A DNA stretch of 64,000 nucleotides from a virus (lineage: Duplodnaviria; Heunggongvirae; Uroviricota; Caudoviricetes): IMG/VR virus record IMGVR_UViG_2519899835_000003. The stretch is one strand, 5' to 3'. The notes beneath the pieces are model-generated. The model ran no database searches. It was not told the origin of the DNA and saw only the letters and a program-made list of their open reading frames with translations. The position numbers and the translations under genes are program-made. Positions 33,075 to 44,503 of this stretch are shown piece after piece; position 1 is the first letter of the stretch, and every line of letters begins with the position of its first letter.

Positions 33075-35219
33075 TCATAGCGGCAATTCATGCATCCGCT
33101 GTTGTAGTGTATGTAGCATCTGTTGCTGAAGAGCTTCCTGCTCCTGTTCCATATTCTGTATGCCGGTAATGATTTCTGCCGTATGCGCCTGGTTGAGCGC
33201 ATCCACATAACGCTGTCCCTGTGCCGCGGCGACATCCCGTTGTGCGCCAGCATTATCCCGTTGCGCAGCTGCCTGTGCCCTGGCAGCTTCTGCTTCCAGT
33301 TTAGCCACCCGGCCTGCCATTTCGCGCATCTGCAGTTCTTCCTGTTGTTGCTGCTGGGCCTGTTGCTGCTGAGCGGCCTGCTGCTCTTCCGGGGTCATCT
33401 CATCCGGTGATTTTGGTGTCCCCAGCGCCGCACGAATACGTTCGACAAATTCCTGTTTCTGCGGCACATCCAGAAGGTTAACCCACAGGTCGAGCACGAC
33501 GGCCTGCACCTGAGGTGGCAGCCCCTGAATAACCTCTGACATTCGCTGTGCAAGCTGTGCCTTAAACGCCGGTGTCTGCTGAACAGGAGCCAGCGCAATA
33601 TGTGTATTTAACCTTGAAATATCATTGGTCAGTTCACCATTATCACCTTCAGCATTGAGAACAATGGTCTGGCGACGCTGGCGATCATCACGATTAATCA
33701 CCACCGCATGATTACGCCGCTTTTTCAGGCCATCGAGAAGATAAGCGAGCAACAGCCTTCCCACCTGCTGGCAGGCAAACTGGTAGTTATCGTTGATTTC
33801 GGCAAGGGTTGTGGCTCCCTGCTCCACCAGGTTGCTGATCGCCACGCCGGACGATGCATTTGAATCCTGCCCGAGAAATGCGGAATAAACCCCCATCGTG
33901 TCCTGGATAAGTTTTTCCGACTCCTGCATGACCTGAAACTGCTGGCTGGCAACCTGAAAATCCTGTTCAACCCGGAAAACATCAGCAACGCTTTTCTGAT
34001 TTTTTCGGGCCGGATTCAGTTTAATAATGCCATCCGGACGCTCGATCTGCTCCATCAGCTCGTTGTCTGACAACTGGGTGGCATCCTCGTCCATAATCAC
34101 GCGTTTGGCCTGAAGCAACCACGTCAGTTTTATACGACGAAAATTCACCTCATCCTGTGCCGGAATGGCCCGGGAAATCAGCCCGTAAGGCTCCCCGGTT
34201 TTATCCTTCCGGTATCCCCAGAAGGGAACCAGCGGGAACATCCCCTGCGGCGCACTGCAGGGGCGATCCACAATAAAGTGCGGTCCCACAAACCAGGCTT
34301 CACGAATACGACTTACCCGCCCGACTCTCACCTGCACCCGCCCGGATGCCACAGCCACCGCATGCATCAGATTATTTTTATCAAAGGCCACCACCCGTCC
34401 ATTACTGAGTTCAATCACCGGAAGACGCTCGAATGTACGGTAATAAACCACCTGAAGCAGCACACGACGGCGTTCACGCTGAAGCCATTCGTTCTCCTTA
34501 CGATCCCATGACTGATACTCTTCCCATGCACTCATCAACGGACTGGGCTGGCCTTCAGTAACCGTGGTATCGACAAAACCACGCCAGTCATCAATGGCAT
34601 AATCGATAACCTGAGCCATTCCCGGGAATGTGGCTTTTGCCTCATCGGTATCCATCCAGCGGCGGCGCATCAGCCAGCGGCAGTCACTTAAATCAGCTTC
34701 CCGGCTGAGCCAGTCCCAGAACACTTCATTCCGGCTGACAGTAGACACCTTAAACTCAGGCCCGAACGGATCGCTGTTCCGTCTGACCTCCACCCAGCTG
34801 AGCCCCGCCTTGATTTGTTCCGCATAGGCATCAGAGCGGGCTTTATTCATATTGCCAAGGCGGCATGCATCGGCAAATTCAGCATTAATAGCTTCAGCCA
34901 GTTTTTCAGTTTCATCATCTGGCTCGTCTGACATCACCACCAGATCAGTCCGTGTTTTGGCCTCCATTCCCAGAACACCATCAACGGTAGGCGCGATGAG
35001 GTTATGGATAGTCATCGGCTGACCGCGATCTTTCAGTACCTGAAGAACTTCTGGTGGCAACTGGTCACCATCGTAATACGCACAGGCCTTGTTTGCGGCA
35101 TCGCGCCATTTAGGCTGACTGTCAATATCAGAACAAAGCGCCTGTAACTGGCGCTGAGAAAAACGCGGCGTGGCTCCGTTGTCGTTTTTCGTCGCCATGG
35201 TATTAGTTTCATTTTTCAT
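33075..35219 (-). CDS. Portal protein
   Basis: 714-aa ORF directly after the large terminase gene; Q-rich helical C-terminus. Confidence 0.8.
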   Translation of the reverse strand: MKNETNTMATKNDNGATPRFSQRQLQALCSDIDSQPKWRDAANKACAYYDGDQLPPEVLQVLKDRGQPMTIHNLIAPTVDGVLGMEAKTRTDLVVMSDEPDDETEKLAEAINAEFADACRLGNMNKARSDAYAEQIKAGLSWVEVRRNSDPFGPEFKVSTVSRNEVFWDWLSREADLSDCRWLMRRRWMDTDEAKATFPGMAQVIDYAIDDWRGFVDTTVTEGQPSPLMSAWEEYQSWDRKENEWLQRERRRVLLQVVYYRTFERLPVIELSNGRVVAFDKNNLMHAVAVASGRVQVRVGRVSRIREAWFVGPHFIVDRPCSAPQGMFPLVPFWGYRKDKTGEPYGLISRAIPAQDEVNFRRIKLTWLLQAKRVIMDEDATQLSDNELMEQIERPDGIIKLNPARKNQKSVADVFRVEQDFQVASQQFQVMQESEKLIQDTMGVYSAFLGQDSNASSGVAISNLVEQGATTLAEINDNYQFACQQVGRLLLAYLLDGLKKRRNHAVVINRDDRQRRQTIVLNAEGDNGELTNDISRLNTHIALAPVQQTPAFKAQLAQRMSEVIQGLPPQVQAVVLDLWVNLLDVPQKQEFVERIRAALGTPKSPDEMTPEEQQAAQQQQAQQQQQEELQMREMAGRVAKLEAEAARAQAAAQRDNAGAQRDVAAAQGQRYVDALNQAHTAEIITGIQNMEQEQEALQQQMLHTLQQRMHELPL

Positions 35220-36925
35220 CAGTGAGCCATCCAGTGTGTGGTTCTGCGTTTATCCGTTTTCTGTCTTACCCTCACCGGCATTCTGGCGCGCATCTCCTGG
35301 GCAATCATGTAGCTCATAAGCTGATCATCAAAACAGCCTTCCTGTGCATTCATGGAGCCTTTCGCGTCATAAACGTAGGTGTTCATTTCTGATAATGTGC
35401 CCGTCCAGCGGATCCCCGACAGGCCGTTATTCAGCAGCGTTTTCATTCCCTCAGTCAGGACCGGTTTACTCTGGCGGGTTGTCAGCCAGCCAAGACGGGG
35501 CGTATCGTCGTCATATGCCTGGTCAAGGTGCTGTTCGTTGTAGATATAACGCGTCGGATAGAGTTCCCGGAGTTTCAGGATAACGGCATGTCCGTGATTG
35601 TTACGCTCCGGCCCCACAAACGCGTTGTTGTACATACGGCAGACCTGCGCAATGAGATGAGCGAAAAGCTCCGCATCGAGATGACCAAACCAGTGGGCTA
35701 CCTGCTCACCATTACTACATCTGATGATATCCAGCGATGAGCGGTCTCCGTGCTCCAGCCCCTCAGCGGTATCCGCTCCGCATACATACTCTTCATCCGG
35801 ATCCGGTAGCTCCCAGACCAGCAGATAATTCATCAGCGTCCGGTGCTGTTCGGCTTTATTCCCGTCACGCAGAGACTGCGCTTTGGTCTTCGTTCCTGTA
35901 ACCGGTTCAATGTCATAAACAATCAGCGGTGGCGAACAGAATGACTCTGCCTGCAGCGTGCTTTCCGCACTGAACACCCGTCGTCCGGACGTCAGAAACG
36001 CCTCCTGTGGTGTTGAGGGAAACTCCTGCTTCATTTCCTCACGCTGTTCAGTTTCCTTGCAGATGTACCAGTGTTTCTGCTCATCGGTAAGCGTGATGTT
36101 CATTGCTTTTTCAACCGCAGAAAAATACGCTGTTTTTTCCCGTGACAGCTTAAGTCCGCTTTCCGGCACTCTGGCGCTGTATTTGAGATCCTGCCACCAG
36201 GCGTAAAAATGGAATTTATAATCCTGTGGCGTCAGCGCCAGCCCTGATGCAGTGATTTCCTGTGCCCGGTTACTCATCTCGTAAAAATCGCCACCCACAC
36301 CTTCAGCAGTGGATTCATCAAAAATAATGCACTCATCAGAGACGGCATTAAGTGTACCGGTTCGCAGCTCTTTCGCCTTAGCCGGATATTTTGCGCAAAT
36401 TTTGCCGTGCTCTGAGATATGCAGGCGCTGCACCGTACCTGAACGGAATGAGGTTGCCACCTGGATACTCGAGCCGTGCCCAAACAGGATATAGCCACCG
36501 CTGGCTCCGCTACGACGTTCAACGATGGTGAATGAGGCTCTCAGCCAGTCAGGAAGATGATCAAACGGTACAGCAATTTTGGTGCGGAAAATTTCACTGG
36601 CAGCCTGTTTATCCTGAGCGACAATCCCGCATTTGAGATGCGGTATGAATAATGCCTGGTCGAGAAGATAAATATCAATGGCCGTGGAAAACCCCAGCTG
36701 GCGTGCTTTCAGGATAATATTTTTATTGTGCATGCTCCGGAACAACTGGCGCTGCGCCGGTCGCATTCTGAAGGTGACCAGCTCACCTTTTTCGTTCTGT
36801 ATCTTGTAGAGATGATTGAGCCGCCACCAGGGATTGCTCAGTTTAGTCATGATGAACAGACGTTGTTCGGCCTCTGTCATTTCTGACGGTTCATCACATC
36901 GCGGTTCATTCTTCCGGAATGTCAT
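35219..36925 (-). CDS. Terminase large subunit
   Basis: 568-aa ORF following the small terminase subunit gene; overall impression of a terminase ATPase-nuclease. Confidence 0.85.
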   Translation of the reverse strand: MTFRKNEPRCDEPSEMTEAEQRLFIMTKLSNPWWRLNHLYKIQNEKGELVTFRMRPAQRQLFRSMHNKNIILKARQLGFSTAIDIYLLDQALFIPHLKCGIVAQDKQAASEIFRTKIAVPFDHLPDWLRASFTIVERRSGASGGYILFGHGSSIQVATSFRSGTVQRLHISEHGKICAKYPAKAKELRTGTLNAVSDECIIFDESTAEGVGGDFYEMSNRAQEITASGLALTPQDYKFHFYAWWQDLKYSARVPESGLKLSREKTAYFSAVEKAMNITLTDEQKHWYICKETEQREEMKQEFPSTPQEAFLTSGRRVFSAESTLQAESFCSPPLIVYDIEPVTGTKTKAQSLRDGNKAEQHRTLMNYLLVWELPDPDEEYVCGADTAEGLEHGDRSSLDIIRCSNGEQVAHWFGHLDAELFAHLIAQVCRMYNNAFVGPERNNHGHAVILKLRELYPTRYIYNEQHLDQAYDDDTPRLGWLTTRQSKPVLTEGMKTLLNNGLSGIRWTGTLSEMNTYVYDAKGSMNAQEGCFDDQLMSYMIAQEMRARMPVRVRQKTDKRRTTHWMAH

Positions 36926-37721
36926 CCAGTCTCCCCGAATTACTCATTTCATGCAGCGATGACACGATGTCACTGACAGGCGTAACAACGCCCCGACGCT
37001 GGCTGGTCAGAATATCGGTTTCCGCTCTGAGTTTATCTCTGGCAGCGTTGGTTCTTTCCCGGTCAGCACGAAGTTTTGGTGCTGTTTCAGCCAGAACGTC
37101 CAGCGTCAGCAATGAGCGTTCAATTGACTCGATACGGGCAATATTCCGGTCAAGAGCCTGTTCAGCTTTGAGTATTTTGTCGTACAGAGCAACGCGGGTT
37201 TCCACGTCAGCCGCCTCTTTCAGGTCGGCGAACATTTTTTTCAGTGTTCCTGTTACTGAAAGTGCGCGGGCCCGGGTAAACACCAGTTCATCGGCAAGTT
37301 CCATTCCGACTGCATCATCTATGAGGTTATCTGCCTCGAGATACTTCGCGTATCCACGGTGTCTGACGGCGTGGGTGTTACGCTGAGAAAAAGCATTTGA
37401 AGGTGGCAAAAGTCTGGAACCACGAGTCCGTTTCGTTTCTGCCAAATTTGCGCATTTTTCATCACAACCATCATCGCCTGAAGGCTCGTCATGACTGGAG
37501 TTGCCGTCAGATTTCTGCGCACTTTTTTGATCATCAATTTGCGCATTTTTCTGCGCACTTTTCTCTGTATTTCTGGGGGAGTGTTTGCGCAGTTTAATGT
37601 ACCGCCGAGCCGTGTCATAACTGATATTGTTCTGACGGCACCAGTCCTGAAGCTTTATGCCGGTTTTGACATGTTCGCGTCGAAATGCCTGCTCCAGCTT
37701 TTTCCAGTCCAGCTTTGCCAT
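36906..37721 (-). CDS. Terminase small subunit
   Basis: 271 aa, N-terminal HTH-like region (NNISYDTARRYIKL); first gene of the late structural block. Confidence 0.7.
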   Translation of the reverse strand: MAKLDWKKLEQAFRREHVKTGIKLQDWCRQNNISYDTARRYIKLRKHSPRNTEKSAQKNAQIDDQKSAQKSDGNSSHDEPSGDDGCDEKCANLAETKRTRGSRLLPPSNAFSQRNTHAVRHRGYAKYLEADNLIDDAVGMELADELVFTRARALSVTGTLKKMFADLKEAADVETRVALYDKILKAEQALDRNIARIESIERSLLTLDVLAETAPKLRADRERTNAARDKLRAETDILTSQRRGVVTPVSDIVSSLHEMSNSGRLDDIPEE

Positions 37722-38323
37722 GTCACCTTCTGACGTTCTCTGTTAAAAACTGATGCACAATGACTGCTGTAAATTTTCAGATTTCACACAGCAGAGCCAT
37801 GTCTGATTAATGTTTAACCTTATTTAGGTTATATCCGCTTCATTCCACTACAGCACCAGATAGGCTGCCTCGCGGATAAATGCCAAAGTCTCCTGATATA
37901 GAAACCCGTCGCCACATCGAGCGCTGATCAACATTTGTATATTCACTGCGACAGAAAGAATTTATTTTATTGAATAGTTAGAAATACAGAATTGCATGCT
38001 TTATAAGCATTGACGCACACTTCATTTTTAGCAATATATTCTGTTCTCATAGACGATCAGCCCTGCATGCACTGCCGGACACCGTCGGCAATTTTACAGA
38101 CCTAAGAGGCAATACCAAAAAGCTAACGCGCTTTATCAAGACTTGAGCAACCAACCAATAAAAAAAGCACCAGTACCGCTACCAATGCCCATTTCGTCGT
38201 TGTTCACAGCATTCTGTGTACCCACTGTATTTCGCGTCATATCACCACGTCAGACAATCCTTAAGGATTACATAAGATTTACGCATAATAATGCCCATTT
38301 TCAACACAGACAAGGGAATTTAT

Positions 38324-38905
38324 ATGTTAAATCAAACGCTAACAAAATCTCTTCTTATATTTTTACTTGTCATAATCGTTTCTGTATCCATCATATACAT
38401 TGTAAGAACTCCAGTCAGACTTGATGTGAACGATGTCACTGAGATTAACCAGAAACATCCCATTATTTTTCTCATCCGGCATGGGGAAAGATGCGATCGC
38501 TCCCAAAGAATATGTCTTTCAGCACATGAGGGAATCACAGTAAACGGAGCTAACAAAGCTCAACAATATGGAGATAAATTCAGAAGAATGTTTCCATACT
38601 ACAGTCTCTATTCTACAGACACACTCCGAACAATGCAGACAGCCACTTTTTTTTCGGGAGGTAAGACAGCAACTATTCCGGACATATCGACATGTGATGA
38701 TAACGCAGTAAATAATATCCTTAAAATATCAAAATCAGATCATGTTACTGTGATTTTCACACATAATCACTGTCTGTCCAGAATTGCAAAAAAAATGAAT
38801 GGATGGAGATTTAAACCTGATTATATGGGCACACTGGTTCTGCATCGGGAAAATCACAATCTGATTCTCGACGGACATTTAAAACCAAACGAGCTTACCC
38901 AGTGA
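38324..38905 (+). CDS. Histidine phosphatase similar to Ais/PmrG (LPS core heptose(II)-phosphate phosphatase)
   Basis: Signal-anchor then LIRHGERCDRSQRICLS...VIFTHNHCL...FKPDY, matching recalled Ais; AT-rich; opposite strand to late genes. Confidence 0.8.
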   Translation: MLNQTLTKSLLIFLLVIIVSVSIIYIVRTPVRLDVNDVTEINQKHPIIFLIRHGERCDRSQRICLSAHEGITVNGANKAQQYGDKFRRMFPYYSLYSTDTLRTMQTATFFSGGKTATIPDISTCDDNAVNNILKISKSDHVTVIFTHNHCLSRIAKKMNGWRFKPDYMGTLVLHRENHNLILDGHLKPNELTQ

Positions 38906-41202: not shown

Positions 41203-43113
41203 TTATGCGGCTGCTCCAGCTTTGTTTGCTTTAACTTCCACCGTATCAATAAGTACAGGGTAGGTTTCTGCACTACCTGTAATATCCGTAATGACAAACC
41301 TGTTGAGTCCATTAGCAGTATTGGCCCATTTCACCAGGTCAAACGCCTGTCCATCCACACCATCGAGCACCGGAGTAACATTAATGCTGTTACTGCCCTT
41401 AAATTTAAATGCAAGCGTATGCCAGTCATGGTCGAATGCGCCAAACGTGCCAAGTTCTTTTTGTTGATTAACTGTATGATGGTATGCAACATTAATACTG
41501 GCTTTATCTGTCTGGACAAAGAAAGAACTCAGATGGCCTTCACCACCCTCACCCGGCCATTCCGCTATTCGCCAGTACAAACCAAAGGCATACTTGTTTC
41601 TGGTTGTCTCAAGATTGACGTTTTCGGGGATTTTAAACCGGACAGCAATTTCCCCGCCTTTTTCCAGTAAAAGTTTTGCCTTGTCTGCAGCAATATCACA
41701 GTACATTGACCAGGATTTCGCGCTGTTATTTTTCTCAATTCGCAGAGCTTTATTGCCGCTGTCATCAACCAGTGTGCGTCTGCCATACATACCGTCCCAG
41801 CCATAAGGTTTCAGCTGATTGTCTGTAGCTTTTTTGGCATCGTAAAAAATTACAGACTCTGAGGTGGTAACCGGCCTGTCTGGAACAACCACCCCGGCAG
41901 TACCATTAACAAACGCAGAAGACTTACCCGCGCAGCTCAGAATCGCCGTTGCCAGACGGTCGGAAATAATCCCACGGCGAGCCCATGAACTGAAATGGCT
42001 CGCCCTGTCCTGTGACGTCCAGGTGGCTGAGCTGTCACGCCATTTCGAACCGTAATATCCGATACCCGGAATGTCCGGGTCTTCTTCCGGTTTGTTCGTC
42101 GGCACATTCACCCCGTTCTCATCCGTCATGAACGGTACGAAATGGATATTCTTTTCCGTTTTATTTTTATAGCTGCCGTACACCGTCTGGTACGTGGATT
42201 CGTTCTTCTGCTTCCAGAAATACGTCGTGTCCCCGCATATCCAGGGAACACCGCCAGCAGAGCCACCGACGCACTGGCCTGCCATATCCGCCAGGTCTGC
42301 ACGGAATTTATCAACCAGCGCACCAAACTGTGCGGCATGATTTGCCGGCGTACCGCCAAAATCAAATTCCCCCTGCATCCACACCACGGCAAACAGCACA
42401 TTTTTCGGGTTCTTCTCCAGTGCCGCTTTTGTTCGACCGATAAGGTCCTTATACAGCGGCTTGTCCACACCCCAGCGGGTTGAATTCTCCGAGGCACCAC
42501 TCGCGTCACTGTATGTGCCATCAGCTCCGGTGGTGAACGCTGAACCACCACGACAGCACGGAACCAGCAGAATGCCCGCATTCGCCGGTATAAACGGCAG
42601 CAGTTTTTTGGCGATATGCAGCCCCTGCCCCACGGTTCCGTACTGCCCCTTTGACAGGTCCGCTTTCGGATGGTTAAGACGGCTCATGTCCTGCACATCA
42701 TGCAGACAATGGTCCGCCGGAATGATGTCGTTATATTTGCATGCTGCACCGCCCGGTGTCACCGTACTGCGACGCGCTAACTGTTTAATACGTGGATCAG
42801 GGCTGTCGAATGTATCCGGTAATGGCAGTCCCTCACCGTATGACATACCATTGGACTGACCAGCAAGCGCGATCACATAGTAATATTCTGGCGCAACAGA
42901 AGGCGCTGAGGTCGTCGGACGGTTGCCTGGCTCCTCTGGTGATGAGATGCTCCCCTCACTCACAACTGGCTGGATGAACTCCGCACCATAACCAGCTGTC
43001 GAAATCAGCGCACTACCATAAGGCTGCCACCCTTCCTTCAGTTTTTGAGTTATTCGTTTCGCAAGGTCTGACGGCGACGCCGCCCTGACAACATCATAGT
43101 GTTTAAATGCCAT
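41203..43113 (-). CDS. Prophage NanS-like sialate O-acetylesterase (SGNH/DUF303)
   Basis: 636 aa with ALAGQSNGMSYGEG esterase motif; positioned between Q and the holin gene. Confidence 0.75.
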   Translation of the reverse strand: MAFKHYDVVRAASPSDLAKRITQKLKEGWQPYGSALISTAGYGAEFIQPVVSEGSISSPEEPGNRPTTSAPSVAPEYYYVIALAGQSNGMSYGEGLPLPDTFDSPDPRIKQLARRSTVTPGGAACKYNDIIPADHCLHDVQDMSRLNHPKADLSKGQYGTVGQGLHIAKKLLPFIPANAGILLVPCCRGGSAFTTGADGTYSDASGASENSTRWGVDKPLYKDLIGRTKAALEKNPKNVLFAVVWMQGEFDFGGTPANHAAQFGALVDKFRADLADMAGQCVGGSAGGVPWICGDTTYFWKQKNESTYQTVYGSYKNKTEKNIHFVPFMTDENGVNVPTNKPEEDPDIPGIGYYGSKWRDSSATWTSQDRASHFSSWARRGIISDRLATAILSCAGKSSAFVNGTAGVVVPDRPVTTSESVIFYDAKKATDNQLKPYGWDGMYGRRTLVDDSGNKALRIEKNNSAKSWSMYCDIAADKAKLLLEKGGEIAVRFKIPENVNLETTRNKYAFGLYWRIAEWPGEGGEGHLSSFFVQTDKASINVAYHHTVNQQKELGTFGAFDHDWHTLAFKFKGSNSINVTPVLDGVDGQAFDLVKWANTANGLNRFVITDITGSAETYPVLIDTVEVKANKAGAAA

Positions 43114-43597
43114 GAATCCTCCCGGCCGGGATAATATTGTGAGTAAAATAAGGAGCGGGCTGAAGTCCGGAAGTTACAGGACAATGGCAGAAGGGAGACT
43201 ACAGCCCGCAATTCGAAAAAGGTCGCGCAGTTGCGCAGAGTGATTACTATGGGGTATTATTCGCCAGCTGAAATATTACTTCACGTTTCATTGTTCATTC
43301 CTTGCCGCCCGCGTCTCCCAGCGCGGGCTTTTTTGTCCATAAGAAAGCCCCTCCGGAGAGGGGCTGGAGAGTGGCGCTATGTGCCATTGCATGGTGCCGG
43401 GTGCCTCCCGGTGAGTTCAGCCCGGTGCCACTAAACCCGCGTCATTCTCGTTTTGATAATCAGAGATTATACCGTCACCAGTCGCCCCTCCGCTCAGGGG
43501 GATTCACCATGCAGTTTTTTCTAACAAATTCTCATCCGGGCAGACAACATTCAACTGACTTAATTGTGAGGTATGTAACATTCCCGTTGAACGGATA

Positions 43598-43628
43598 CAA
43601 AAAAAGCCAGCCACCAGGGGAGGCTGGC
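43598..43628 (-). terminator. Rho-independent terminator in the Q-to-esterase leader
   Basis: gccagcc...ggctggc hairpin followed by T-run on the minus strand. Confidence 0.45.
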
Positions 43629-43807
43629 AAACTCGTAGAGCAAAATGCTGTTACGCAAACTTCGTTACAGGGTTATCCTGCAATACTTAAAATATACAAT
43701 ATTTAGAAAACTAATAGTGCCATATGAGATTTTTAAGATTTTGTTATTAATTGCGGTCGTACCTTCCTTTCTGTGTACTTTCCGTATAGCTCACAGGATT
43801 CTGGGTA

Positions 43808-43833
43808 CAAAAAAACCCGCGCATCGGCGGGTT
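43808..43833 (-). terminator. Rho-independent terminator about 50 nt downstream of Q
   Basis: acccgc-cgatgc-gcgggt hairpin followed by T7 on the minus strand. Confidence 0.5.
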
Positions 43834-43878
43834 CGGCTGCGTGGCAATGTAACCACTCTTATCATGATATGCAGATTT

Positions 43879-44313
43879 TTACGATCGTAAACTATTTTTT
43901 CGCTGATAAAATACAGAGGTTCTCCCTCCCGGCAATTCACGCTCAACATACCGATCCATCTCAAGCCTCACTCCCAGCATCATCAGCATGCCTTCAACAA
44001 TCCCCTCCGCTTTGTGAAGGCGTTTACCTATACAGGTGTCAGAGCACCCATGTTTCCGTGCCAGCGCCATGAACGTCTCCCCCAACACGTAGTAATCAAC
44101 CAGCAAGTCATGCAGATCGCGATTGTTCCGGTAAAGGCGGGCTATGCACCCGCATATCACCATCGCATCATCGTCACAGCACTGTGGACGTGATTTTACT
44201 TTTTCGGGGATCAGTCCCTTAAATCCGGCAGCAATGGGCGACCATGTAACATCCTCATAGTTATTTACCGCCCATGCCCCCCAGCGCTCAAGAACCTGCC
44301 GGATATCACGCAT
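43879..44313 (-). CDS. Q: Late antiterminator Q
   Basis: [25 protein letters not shown]...[17 protein letters not shown] matches the Q of Stx phages as I recall it. Confidence 0.8.
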
Positions 44314-44503
44314 CAGTATCTTTACCCCATCCGCGATGAACCATAAGGACGCCATTGACGACGGCGTGCTTTTTCGCATCTTTATCATCAATGTATTTTC
44401 TGACTGTAGCACGATTGCAGTTCAGTATTCTGGCGACTTCTGTCTGATTTCCCCTGGTGCAGATCAGTAATTCAGGTATCGTTTGAATTTTAGCATTCAT
44501 CAA
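44306..44503 (-). CDS. ninH: NinH-like DNA-binding protein
   Basis: 65 aa; [19 protein letters not shown]...[17 protein letters not shown]. Confidence 0.7.

Follow-up and report, generated by a model that had tools for sequence, protein, structure and literature searches.

Five copies of the hexamer TGCGCA within 143 bp of the small terminase gene (terS) of a 933W-like (Sepvirinae) E. coli prophage probably form the part of a P1-type pac site that is recognised by the small terminase subunit (TerS). The prophage is the source of the 64-kb stretch of DNA analysed here (referred to as the window). A preliminary description of the window had proposed a pac site inside the small terminase gene, and sequence comparison argues for this reading: the repeat is under selection at the DNA level, an array is present in every relative examined, its word covaries with the putative recognition helix of TerS, the N-terminus of TerS weakly resembles PacA, and terminal redundancy and transduction have been reported for phage 933W (PMC3752737). 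The kind of element, repeated TerS-binding words in a small-terminase gene, is already known. For the present array and the specificity classes across its family, there seems to be no earlier description.

The terS gene is located at 36906-37721 on the minus strand and encodes 271 aa (ORF list). Its product matched the PHROG 370 profile 'terminase small subunit' with an E-value of 1.2e-117. The gene lies directly upstream of the large terminase gene terL (35219-36925, minus strand, 568 aa), the start of which it overlaps by 20 nt. The terL product matched PHROG 2 'terminase large subunit' (E 3.6e-52) and also PHROG 24361, and is presumed to be the nuclease and motor that cuts near the array. 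The profile match and the overlap with terL confirm the small terminase gene call that had been made from the sequence alone; Pfam and NCBIfam searches returned no model for either product.

The closest record to the prophage is phage GER2, with 98.9% identity across terS. Between the lysis genes and terS sits a 204-aa ORF in the opposite orientation (38291-38905, plus strand), which is probably a moron (lysogenic-conversion gene), since the corresponding GER2 gene carries the annotation LPS core heptose(II)-phosphate phosphatase. The prophage seems to be a relative of the Stx phages that lacks stx. No stx-sized ORF is present between a 636-aa ORF (41203-43113, minus strand) and the candidate antiterminator Q gene (43879-44412, minus strand), the latter assigned from its position and length only. 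Related phage records matching the 41203-44412 region include features annotated as SASA family carbohydrate esterase. ARAGORN found no tRNA genes in the whole window.

The whole array runs from 37446 to 37595 and consists, read along the gene strand, of five AAAnTGCGCARA sites with A/T-rich flanks; this flank consensus was built from 87 sites. All five are given here in the orientation of the gene, on the minus strand. Site 1 (37583-37595, core 37586-37591) covers gene nt 131-136 in codon phase 1 and reads AAA CTG CGC AAA CAC (KLRKH). Site 2 (37549-37561, core 37552-37557; gene nt 165-170) and site 4 (37513-37525, core 37516-37521; gene nt 201-206) are both in phase 2 and both read AAA AGT GCG CAG AAA (KSAQK). 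Site 3 (37537-37549, core 37540-37545; gene nt 177-182), also in phase 2, reads AAA AAT GCG CAA ATT (KNAQI), and site 5 (37446-37458, core 37449-37454; gene nt 268-273) is in phase 0 and reads AAA TGC GCA AAT TTG (KCANL). The motif and the coordinates in the preliminary description were thus correct; the array, which had been placed in the middle of the gene, lies in its first third (nt 131-273 of 816).

Site 5 is an isolated 'right arm' copy, which is kept in the E. coli/Citrobacter clade, including the 933W-type genes. The gap between sites 4 and 5 (37455-37515) measures 61 bp, or 67 bp from core start to core start. The latter spacing is also 67 bp in PhiR12_3 and is 91 bp in Citrobacter. 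By analogy with P1, we infer that this gap may be a candidate cleavage region.

In total, 34 copies of TGCGCA were counted in the window, five of which are those of the array. In first-order Markov simulations the top hexamer count per 150 bp was 3-4 in 39 of 40 runs and 5 in the remaining one, so the raw hexamer count is by itself only modestly unusual, and it is the extended motif and the comparative data that carry weight. The extended pattern TTNTGCGCANTTT, allowing at most 1 mismatch, had 10 matches in the window, against a shuffle mean of 2.68 (maximum 7) for the whole window; five of the 10 were the array sites, and the array was the sole cluster of this motif in the 64 kb. Two hexamer clusters in the window were richer than the array, both in apparently collagen-like repeats of the prophage's tail-fibre region. 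One is contained in a long imperfect tandem repeat block at 26311-27209 (periods 45, 54, 108 and 216 nt, CCN/GGN-rich), which looks like minus-strand coding sequence for collagen-type Gly-X-Y; the other consists of AGGTGA, at about 27531-27720.

Other kinds of element were considered for the region. An Rfam E-value search of 36800-38400 found nothing, and folding of the array RNA was not better than that of shuffles (z -0.63); a known RNA element was therefore rejected. A promoter or terminator in the array region was rejected as well, with only consensus-level matches at chance rate. The terminator-like hairpin on the plus strand at 37540-37557 is formed by two adjoining palindromic sites read antisense. 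Among 518 pairwise distances between sites there was no peak at 10-11 bp that would indicate helical phasing, only the codon period of 3.

The five copies occupy codon phases 1, 2, 2, 2 and 0 and encode four different peptides. A single DNA word present in all three frames with four peptides is not the pattern expected of an in-frame peptide repeat. The coding sequence was permuted within the gene among synonymous codons, keeping the protein and the codon usage of the gene itself, in 2000 shuffles. For terS the shuffles had a mean of 0.59 TGCGCA in the array stretch and a maximum of 4, and five copies were reached in 0 of 2000. An identical 15-mer occurs at sites 2 and 4, and sites 3 and 2 form a 12-bp tandem; recent in-frame duplication could contribute part of the synonymous-codon signal, given the 15 nt shared by sites 2 and 4. 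The distribution over three codon phases and the synonymous shuffle together show that the repeat is constrained or selected at the DNA level. Of the five copies, only sites 2 and 4 encode KSAQK, the peptide given as repeated in the preliminary description; what recurs is the DNA word, and the peptide merely follows from it.

An AlphaFold2 model of TerS was built with an alignment of 44 sequences. Codons 1-45 (37587-37721, minus strand) encode a predicted N-terminal three-helix domain, in which helices at residues 6-20, 24-30 and 35-41 (pLDDT 86-88) form a helix-turn-helix-like (HTH) bundle. The putative recognition helix comprises residues 35-41 (YDTARRY) and runs on into IK; R39, R40 and Y41, which covary with the DNA word, fall in this third helix. 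Codons 46-112 (37386-37586, minus strand) encode a linker that is predicted to be disordered (pLDDT 31-41), cannot be aligned between lineages, and provides the coding space for the array. At gene nt 131-273, the array spans codons 44-91, from the beginning of the disordered linker through its main part, which places the proposed cis-acting sites at the least constrained protein sequence. A long helical hairpin follows at residues 130-241 (pLDDT >90), and in this model it would presumably serve oligomerisation. Besides the model, the HTH had sub-threshold Pfam matches, to HTH_29 (E 0.01) and, for the AIRK type, to Sigma70_r4 (E 0.001). Fold searches with TerS gave coiled-coil matches only, and a PDB sequence search with TerS returned no terminase entries, with SF6 G1P and Sf6 gp1 unmatched.

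Relatives were collected by tblastn against phage records and by pattern scans of genome and viral contigs. The 115 terS loci found represented 89 unique genes, 86 of them full length, from which 38 representatives were taken that differ by >15% over the first 100 residues and span 27-100% identity. They derive from E. coli, Citrobacter, Yersinia, Morganella, Xenorhabdus, Photobacterium, Klebsiella and Rahnella, an Aeromonas phage and a Pasteurella phage. All 38 representatives contained 4-9 copies of one 6-7-mer, nearly all at gene nt ~110-320, just after the N-terminal helix-turn-helix. The copies usually occupied 2-3 codon phases, and both strands where the word was asymmetric. For 36 of the 38, the observed count was reached in at most 4 of 2000 synonymous shuffles. 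The layout of 4 + 1 sites seen in the window was also found in Citrobacter, PhiR12_3 has 5 + 2, and in other lineages the array is continuous.

The word of each gene was determined de novo as its top hexamer and compared with the sequence class of helix 3. The top hexamer followed the helix-3 class in 84 of the 86 unique genes. With helix 3 of the type ARR[YH]I, the hexamer was TGCGCA or a one-base shift of it (31 of 33 genes); with AKR[YH]I it was TGCGAA (13/13), with ARTRI, the 933W type, GATCAT (word GATCATG; 25/25), with AIRK[RK]A GTACGC (word GTACGCA; 13/13) and with AINKRA GGAAAC (word GTTTCCA; 2/2). TGCGCA persists across lineages as far apart as E. coli and Photobacterium, whose proteins are ~33% identical and whose linkers cannot be aligned. 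When a tree was built from the C-terminal domain, the word classes were interspersed in it, indicating that the word travels with the HTH and not with the rest of the protein. In agreement with this, window-type and 933W-type terS genes are 87-100% identical outside alignment columns ~60-270 and 33-73% identical inside them, and these divergent columns hold helices 2 and 3 and the left part of the array.

The sister arrays have features of their own. In 933W-type terS (phage P13374, gene nt 142-183), four to five tandem 12-bp units with CGATCATG adjoin a different recognition helix (NTARTRIK). These genes keep two TGCGCA copies (in EKCAKNSEKNCANS) downstream of the GATCATG array, at nt ~275-310 of P13374 terS, which may be left over from a cassette swap or may work as a second arm. 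GTACGCA-class terS genes have 5' copies that point along the gene, and the copies nearest the 3' end (around nt 182-290) point the opposite way; two arms thus face each other across a gap of ~50 bp, which may mark the cleavage region.

Phage P1 has a weakly similar protein and a comparable array. TerS matched PHROG 1711, the PacA family, at E 4.9e-5 (P1 PacA itself matches this profile at E 4e-202), and in the reverse comparison P1 PacA matched PHROG 370 at E 1.9e-4. Using hhalign, residues 5-48 of the TerS family were aligned to residues 2-45 of PacA (E 5e-5, with a marginal probability of 67%), pairing DTARRYIK with NTARRYLR of PacA, and pairwise BLASTP of TerS and PacA gave a weak match (E 9e-5). 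According to the profile comparison the likeness is confined to the N-terminal ~45-100 residues, and the C-terminal parts are not detectably related. The P1 GenBank record places the pac cleavage sites at pacA nt 276-285 and an IHF site at nt 256-268. The hexamer TGATC(A/G) is found at pacA nt 194, 201, 213 and 228 and at nt 324, 336 and 347, and one more match lies at nt 375; the hexamers occupy two codon phases, and the clusters at nt 194-233 and 324-352 flank the cleavage sites. Classical P1 pac is described as seven hexanucleotide repeats (summarised in PMC11260489).

The arrays of P1 and of the window are both located within the small-subunit gene, follow closely on the codons of the HTH and use more than one codon phase. 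The P1 cleavage sites fall in the gap between two arms of 4 + 3 sites; the 4 + 1 sites of the window, on either side of the 61-bp gap, may be a layout of this kind. On the opposite strand, CGATCATG of the 933W-type sister cassette reads ATGATC(G/A) and is thus the P1 word; I-D-H is encoded there, just as in P1. The P1 hexamers each contain a Dam (GATC) site and the 933W-type CGATCATG also has GATC, whereas TGCGCA lacks it, so that no Dam control is possible at the window array. From the sequence of the sister cassette we predict that pac recognition in 933W itself would be Dam-sensitive and P1-like. Cleavage of P1 pac is carried out by PacA/PacB with IHF/HU and depends on Dam methylation. P1 pac has an IHF site, whereas the IHF consensus WATCAANNNNTTR, with at most 1 mismatch, had no match at 37200-37720 in a consensus scan, a type of scan that can miss weak sites. 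The proteins differ in size (271 aa for TerS, 397 aa for P1 PacA), and the large subunit of the window belongs to PHROG 2. P1 PacA has an ARRY-type helix yet uses TGATCR, which argues that helix 3 is not the sole determinant of specificity.

The pac region of SPP1 (pacL, pacC and pacR) consists of several short repeated boxes that are bound by the HTH domains of oligomeric G1P; it partly overlaps the terS gene, and the cut falls between two binding regions. In this Bacillus phage some of the boxes lie upstream of the gene, whereas the window array lies wholly inside terS, and the sequence and fold searches with TerS revealed no likeness to the SPP1 protein. In lambda, the repeats R1-R3 of cosB are bound, together with IHF, by the winged HTH of gpNu1. 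These repeats adjoin or overlap the start of the small-subunit gene and are read by the N-terminal HTH of its TerS, and precise cohesive ends are made at cosN. In contrast, the window array is fully intragenic, and it belongs to a phage group that is reported to be terminally redundant and generalized-transducing.

The pac site of P22 is a single asymmetric sequence of ~22 bp. For this site a 17-nt consensus common to host pac-like sites has been described, and P22, a headful-packaging, generalized-transducing temperate phage, carries pac inside its small terminase gene (PMC11260489). P22 had served as the model in the preliminary description. The in-gene location is as proposed here, and this part of the model is supported; the architecture in the window is a hexamer array and not one extended site, and for this P1 is the better model. 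Searches of PHROG, Pfam and PDB showed no similarity between TerS and P22 gp3.

Published packaging modes of the short-tailed Stx phages conflict, with descriptions as terminally redundant and transducing, as 'cos' and as 'Mu-like'. Phage 933W transduces chromosomal markers, and evidence for its terminal redundancy has been cited (Marinus and Poteete, PMC3752737); transduction and apparent terminal redundancy fit headful packaging from a pac site. Stx podophages have also been called 'cos' (PMC7566468). A 933W-like phage with a TerS of the same family as that of the window was classified by PhageTerm as 'Mu-like', with termini that carried host DNA (PMC7946995), a result that is also expected if packaging starts on a still-integrated prophage. 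The GenBank note of phi296, 'circularly permutated ... cohesive ends', was rejected as evidence, since it reflects only re-orientation of the record at terL and not mapping of ends. Our literature search, with most subscription journals outside its coverage, retrieved no mapped pac site for the TerS family of the window and, with the same coverage, no mention of TGCGCA with a window-type terminase.

From the covariation it can be concluded that the HTH-bearing TerS probably binds here, but not to what effect, and the sites are located inside a transcribed gene. The array might be an operator through which TerS autoregulates terS and terL, by a roadblock or by translational coupling, with packaging starting elsewhere. 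We consider this unlikely. P1 is the only relative that has been studied by experiment, and there the corresponding array is itself pac, with cleavage inside it; the window has no second cluster of the motif that could act as pac. To our knowledge, there is no precedent for TerS autoregulation through intragenic arrays.

Somewhat less likely still, the repeat would be a functionless by-product of a low-complexity Lys/Gln/Ala-rich linker that has grown by in-frame slippage or duplication. The predicted disorder of the linker would agree with this, as would the 15-mer and the 12-bp tandem among sites 2, 3 and 4 and the 933W-type array, a pure in-frame 12-bp tandem with a copy number of 4-5 and the weakest synonymous-shuffle signal (29/2000). 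However, such growth does not explain the three codon phases with four peptides or a word kept across linkers that cannot be aligned, in proteins only ~33% identical. In addition, the word changes with the HTH helix and not with the rest of the protein, and the observed counts are almost never reached by synonymous shuffles.

Very improbable is binding by some other factor (a host protein, a restriction-modification system, or a recombinase making the mosaic joint): TGCGCA is palindromic and what we take to be an FspI-type restriction target, and the region forms a mosaic boundary between terS types, but five lineage-specific words, each tied to a TerS helix type in otherwise similar phages and hosts, are hard to reconcile with a host factor, and the asymmetric words GTACGCA and GTTTCCA are not restriction-type palindromes.

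Several observations weigh against a P1-type pac site: the likeness to PacA is marginal and N-terminal, P1 combines an ARRY-type helix with another word, neither helical phasing nor an IHF consensus was seen, 933W-type genes retain two TGCGCA copies next to a different HTH, and Stx podophages have been called 'cos' or 'Mu-like'. For a P1-type pac site read by TerS, the following mechanism may be envisaged. The predicted parts of TerS are an N-terminal helix-turn-helix, a disordered linker of ~65 residues and, last, a long hairpin of helices. On phage DNA, concatemeric or still integrated, a single TerS oligomer would engage the cluster with several of its HTH domains, and so gain avidity and specificity. 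This would place TerL for a cut close by, perhaps within the 61 bp separating site 4 from site 5, as the P1 analogy suggests. Headful packaging would then run, by the same analogy, probably in the terS-to-terL direction. The putative binding sites would be written into the linker codons of TerS itself, where protein constraint is lowest, and the comparison of terS types indicates that HTH and array form one cassette of ~220 bp that appears to be swapped as a unit by recombination.

It is possible, though slightly less likely than not, that HTH and array make up a portable 'packaging-specificity cassette', in which case one recombination of ~220 bp would switch the DNA that is packaged. At least five specificities would then circulate on otherwise near-identical terminases. 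Among 5426 complete E. coli genomes, the window-type array was present in 43 and the 933W-type array in 387. The O104:H4 genome C227-11 (NZ_CP011331.1) carries both cassettes, in two prophages (1861138-1861378 and 2593364-2593604), and the TGCGCA window-type and GATCATG 933W-type cassettes are also found on the same chromosome in NZ_CP023535.1. The presence of both cassettes in separate prophages of O104:H4 outbreak genomes suggests that they may define packaging-specificity groups. If this is true, co-resident cassettes could stop sister prophages from packaging each other's DNA, and the cassette type could decide which chromosomal flanks are laterally transduced.

The sequences also show an apparent match of one residue with one base, R39 occurring with TGCGCA and K39 with TGCGAA. 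If this correspondence is real, TerS would have a readable recognition code, and the substitution R39K is predicted to shift recognition from TGCGCA to TGCGAA.

For the short-tailed Stx phages and their relatives, a medically important group, descriptions of packaging are inconsistent. The analysis yields a precise pac candidate of 150 bp with five named sites and predicts a word for each TerS type. Should the candidate be confirmed, sequence alone could suffice to predict pac specificity, the direction in which lateral transduction leaves these prophages, and whether co-resident prophages package each other's DNA.
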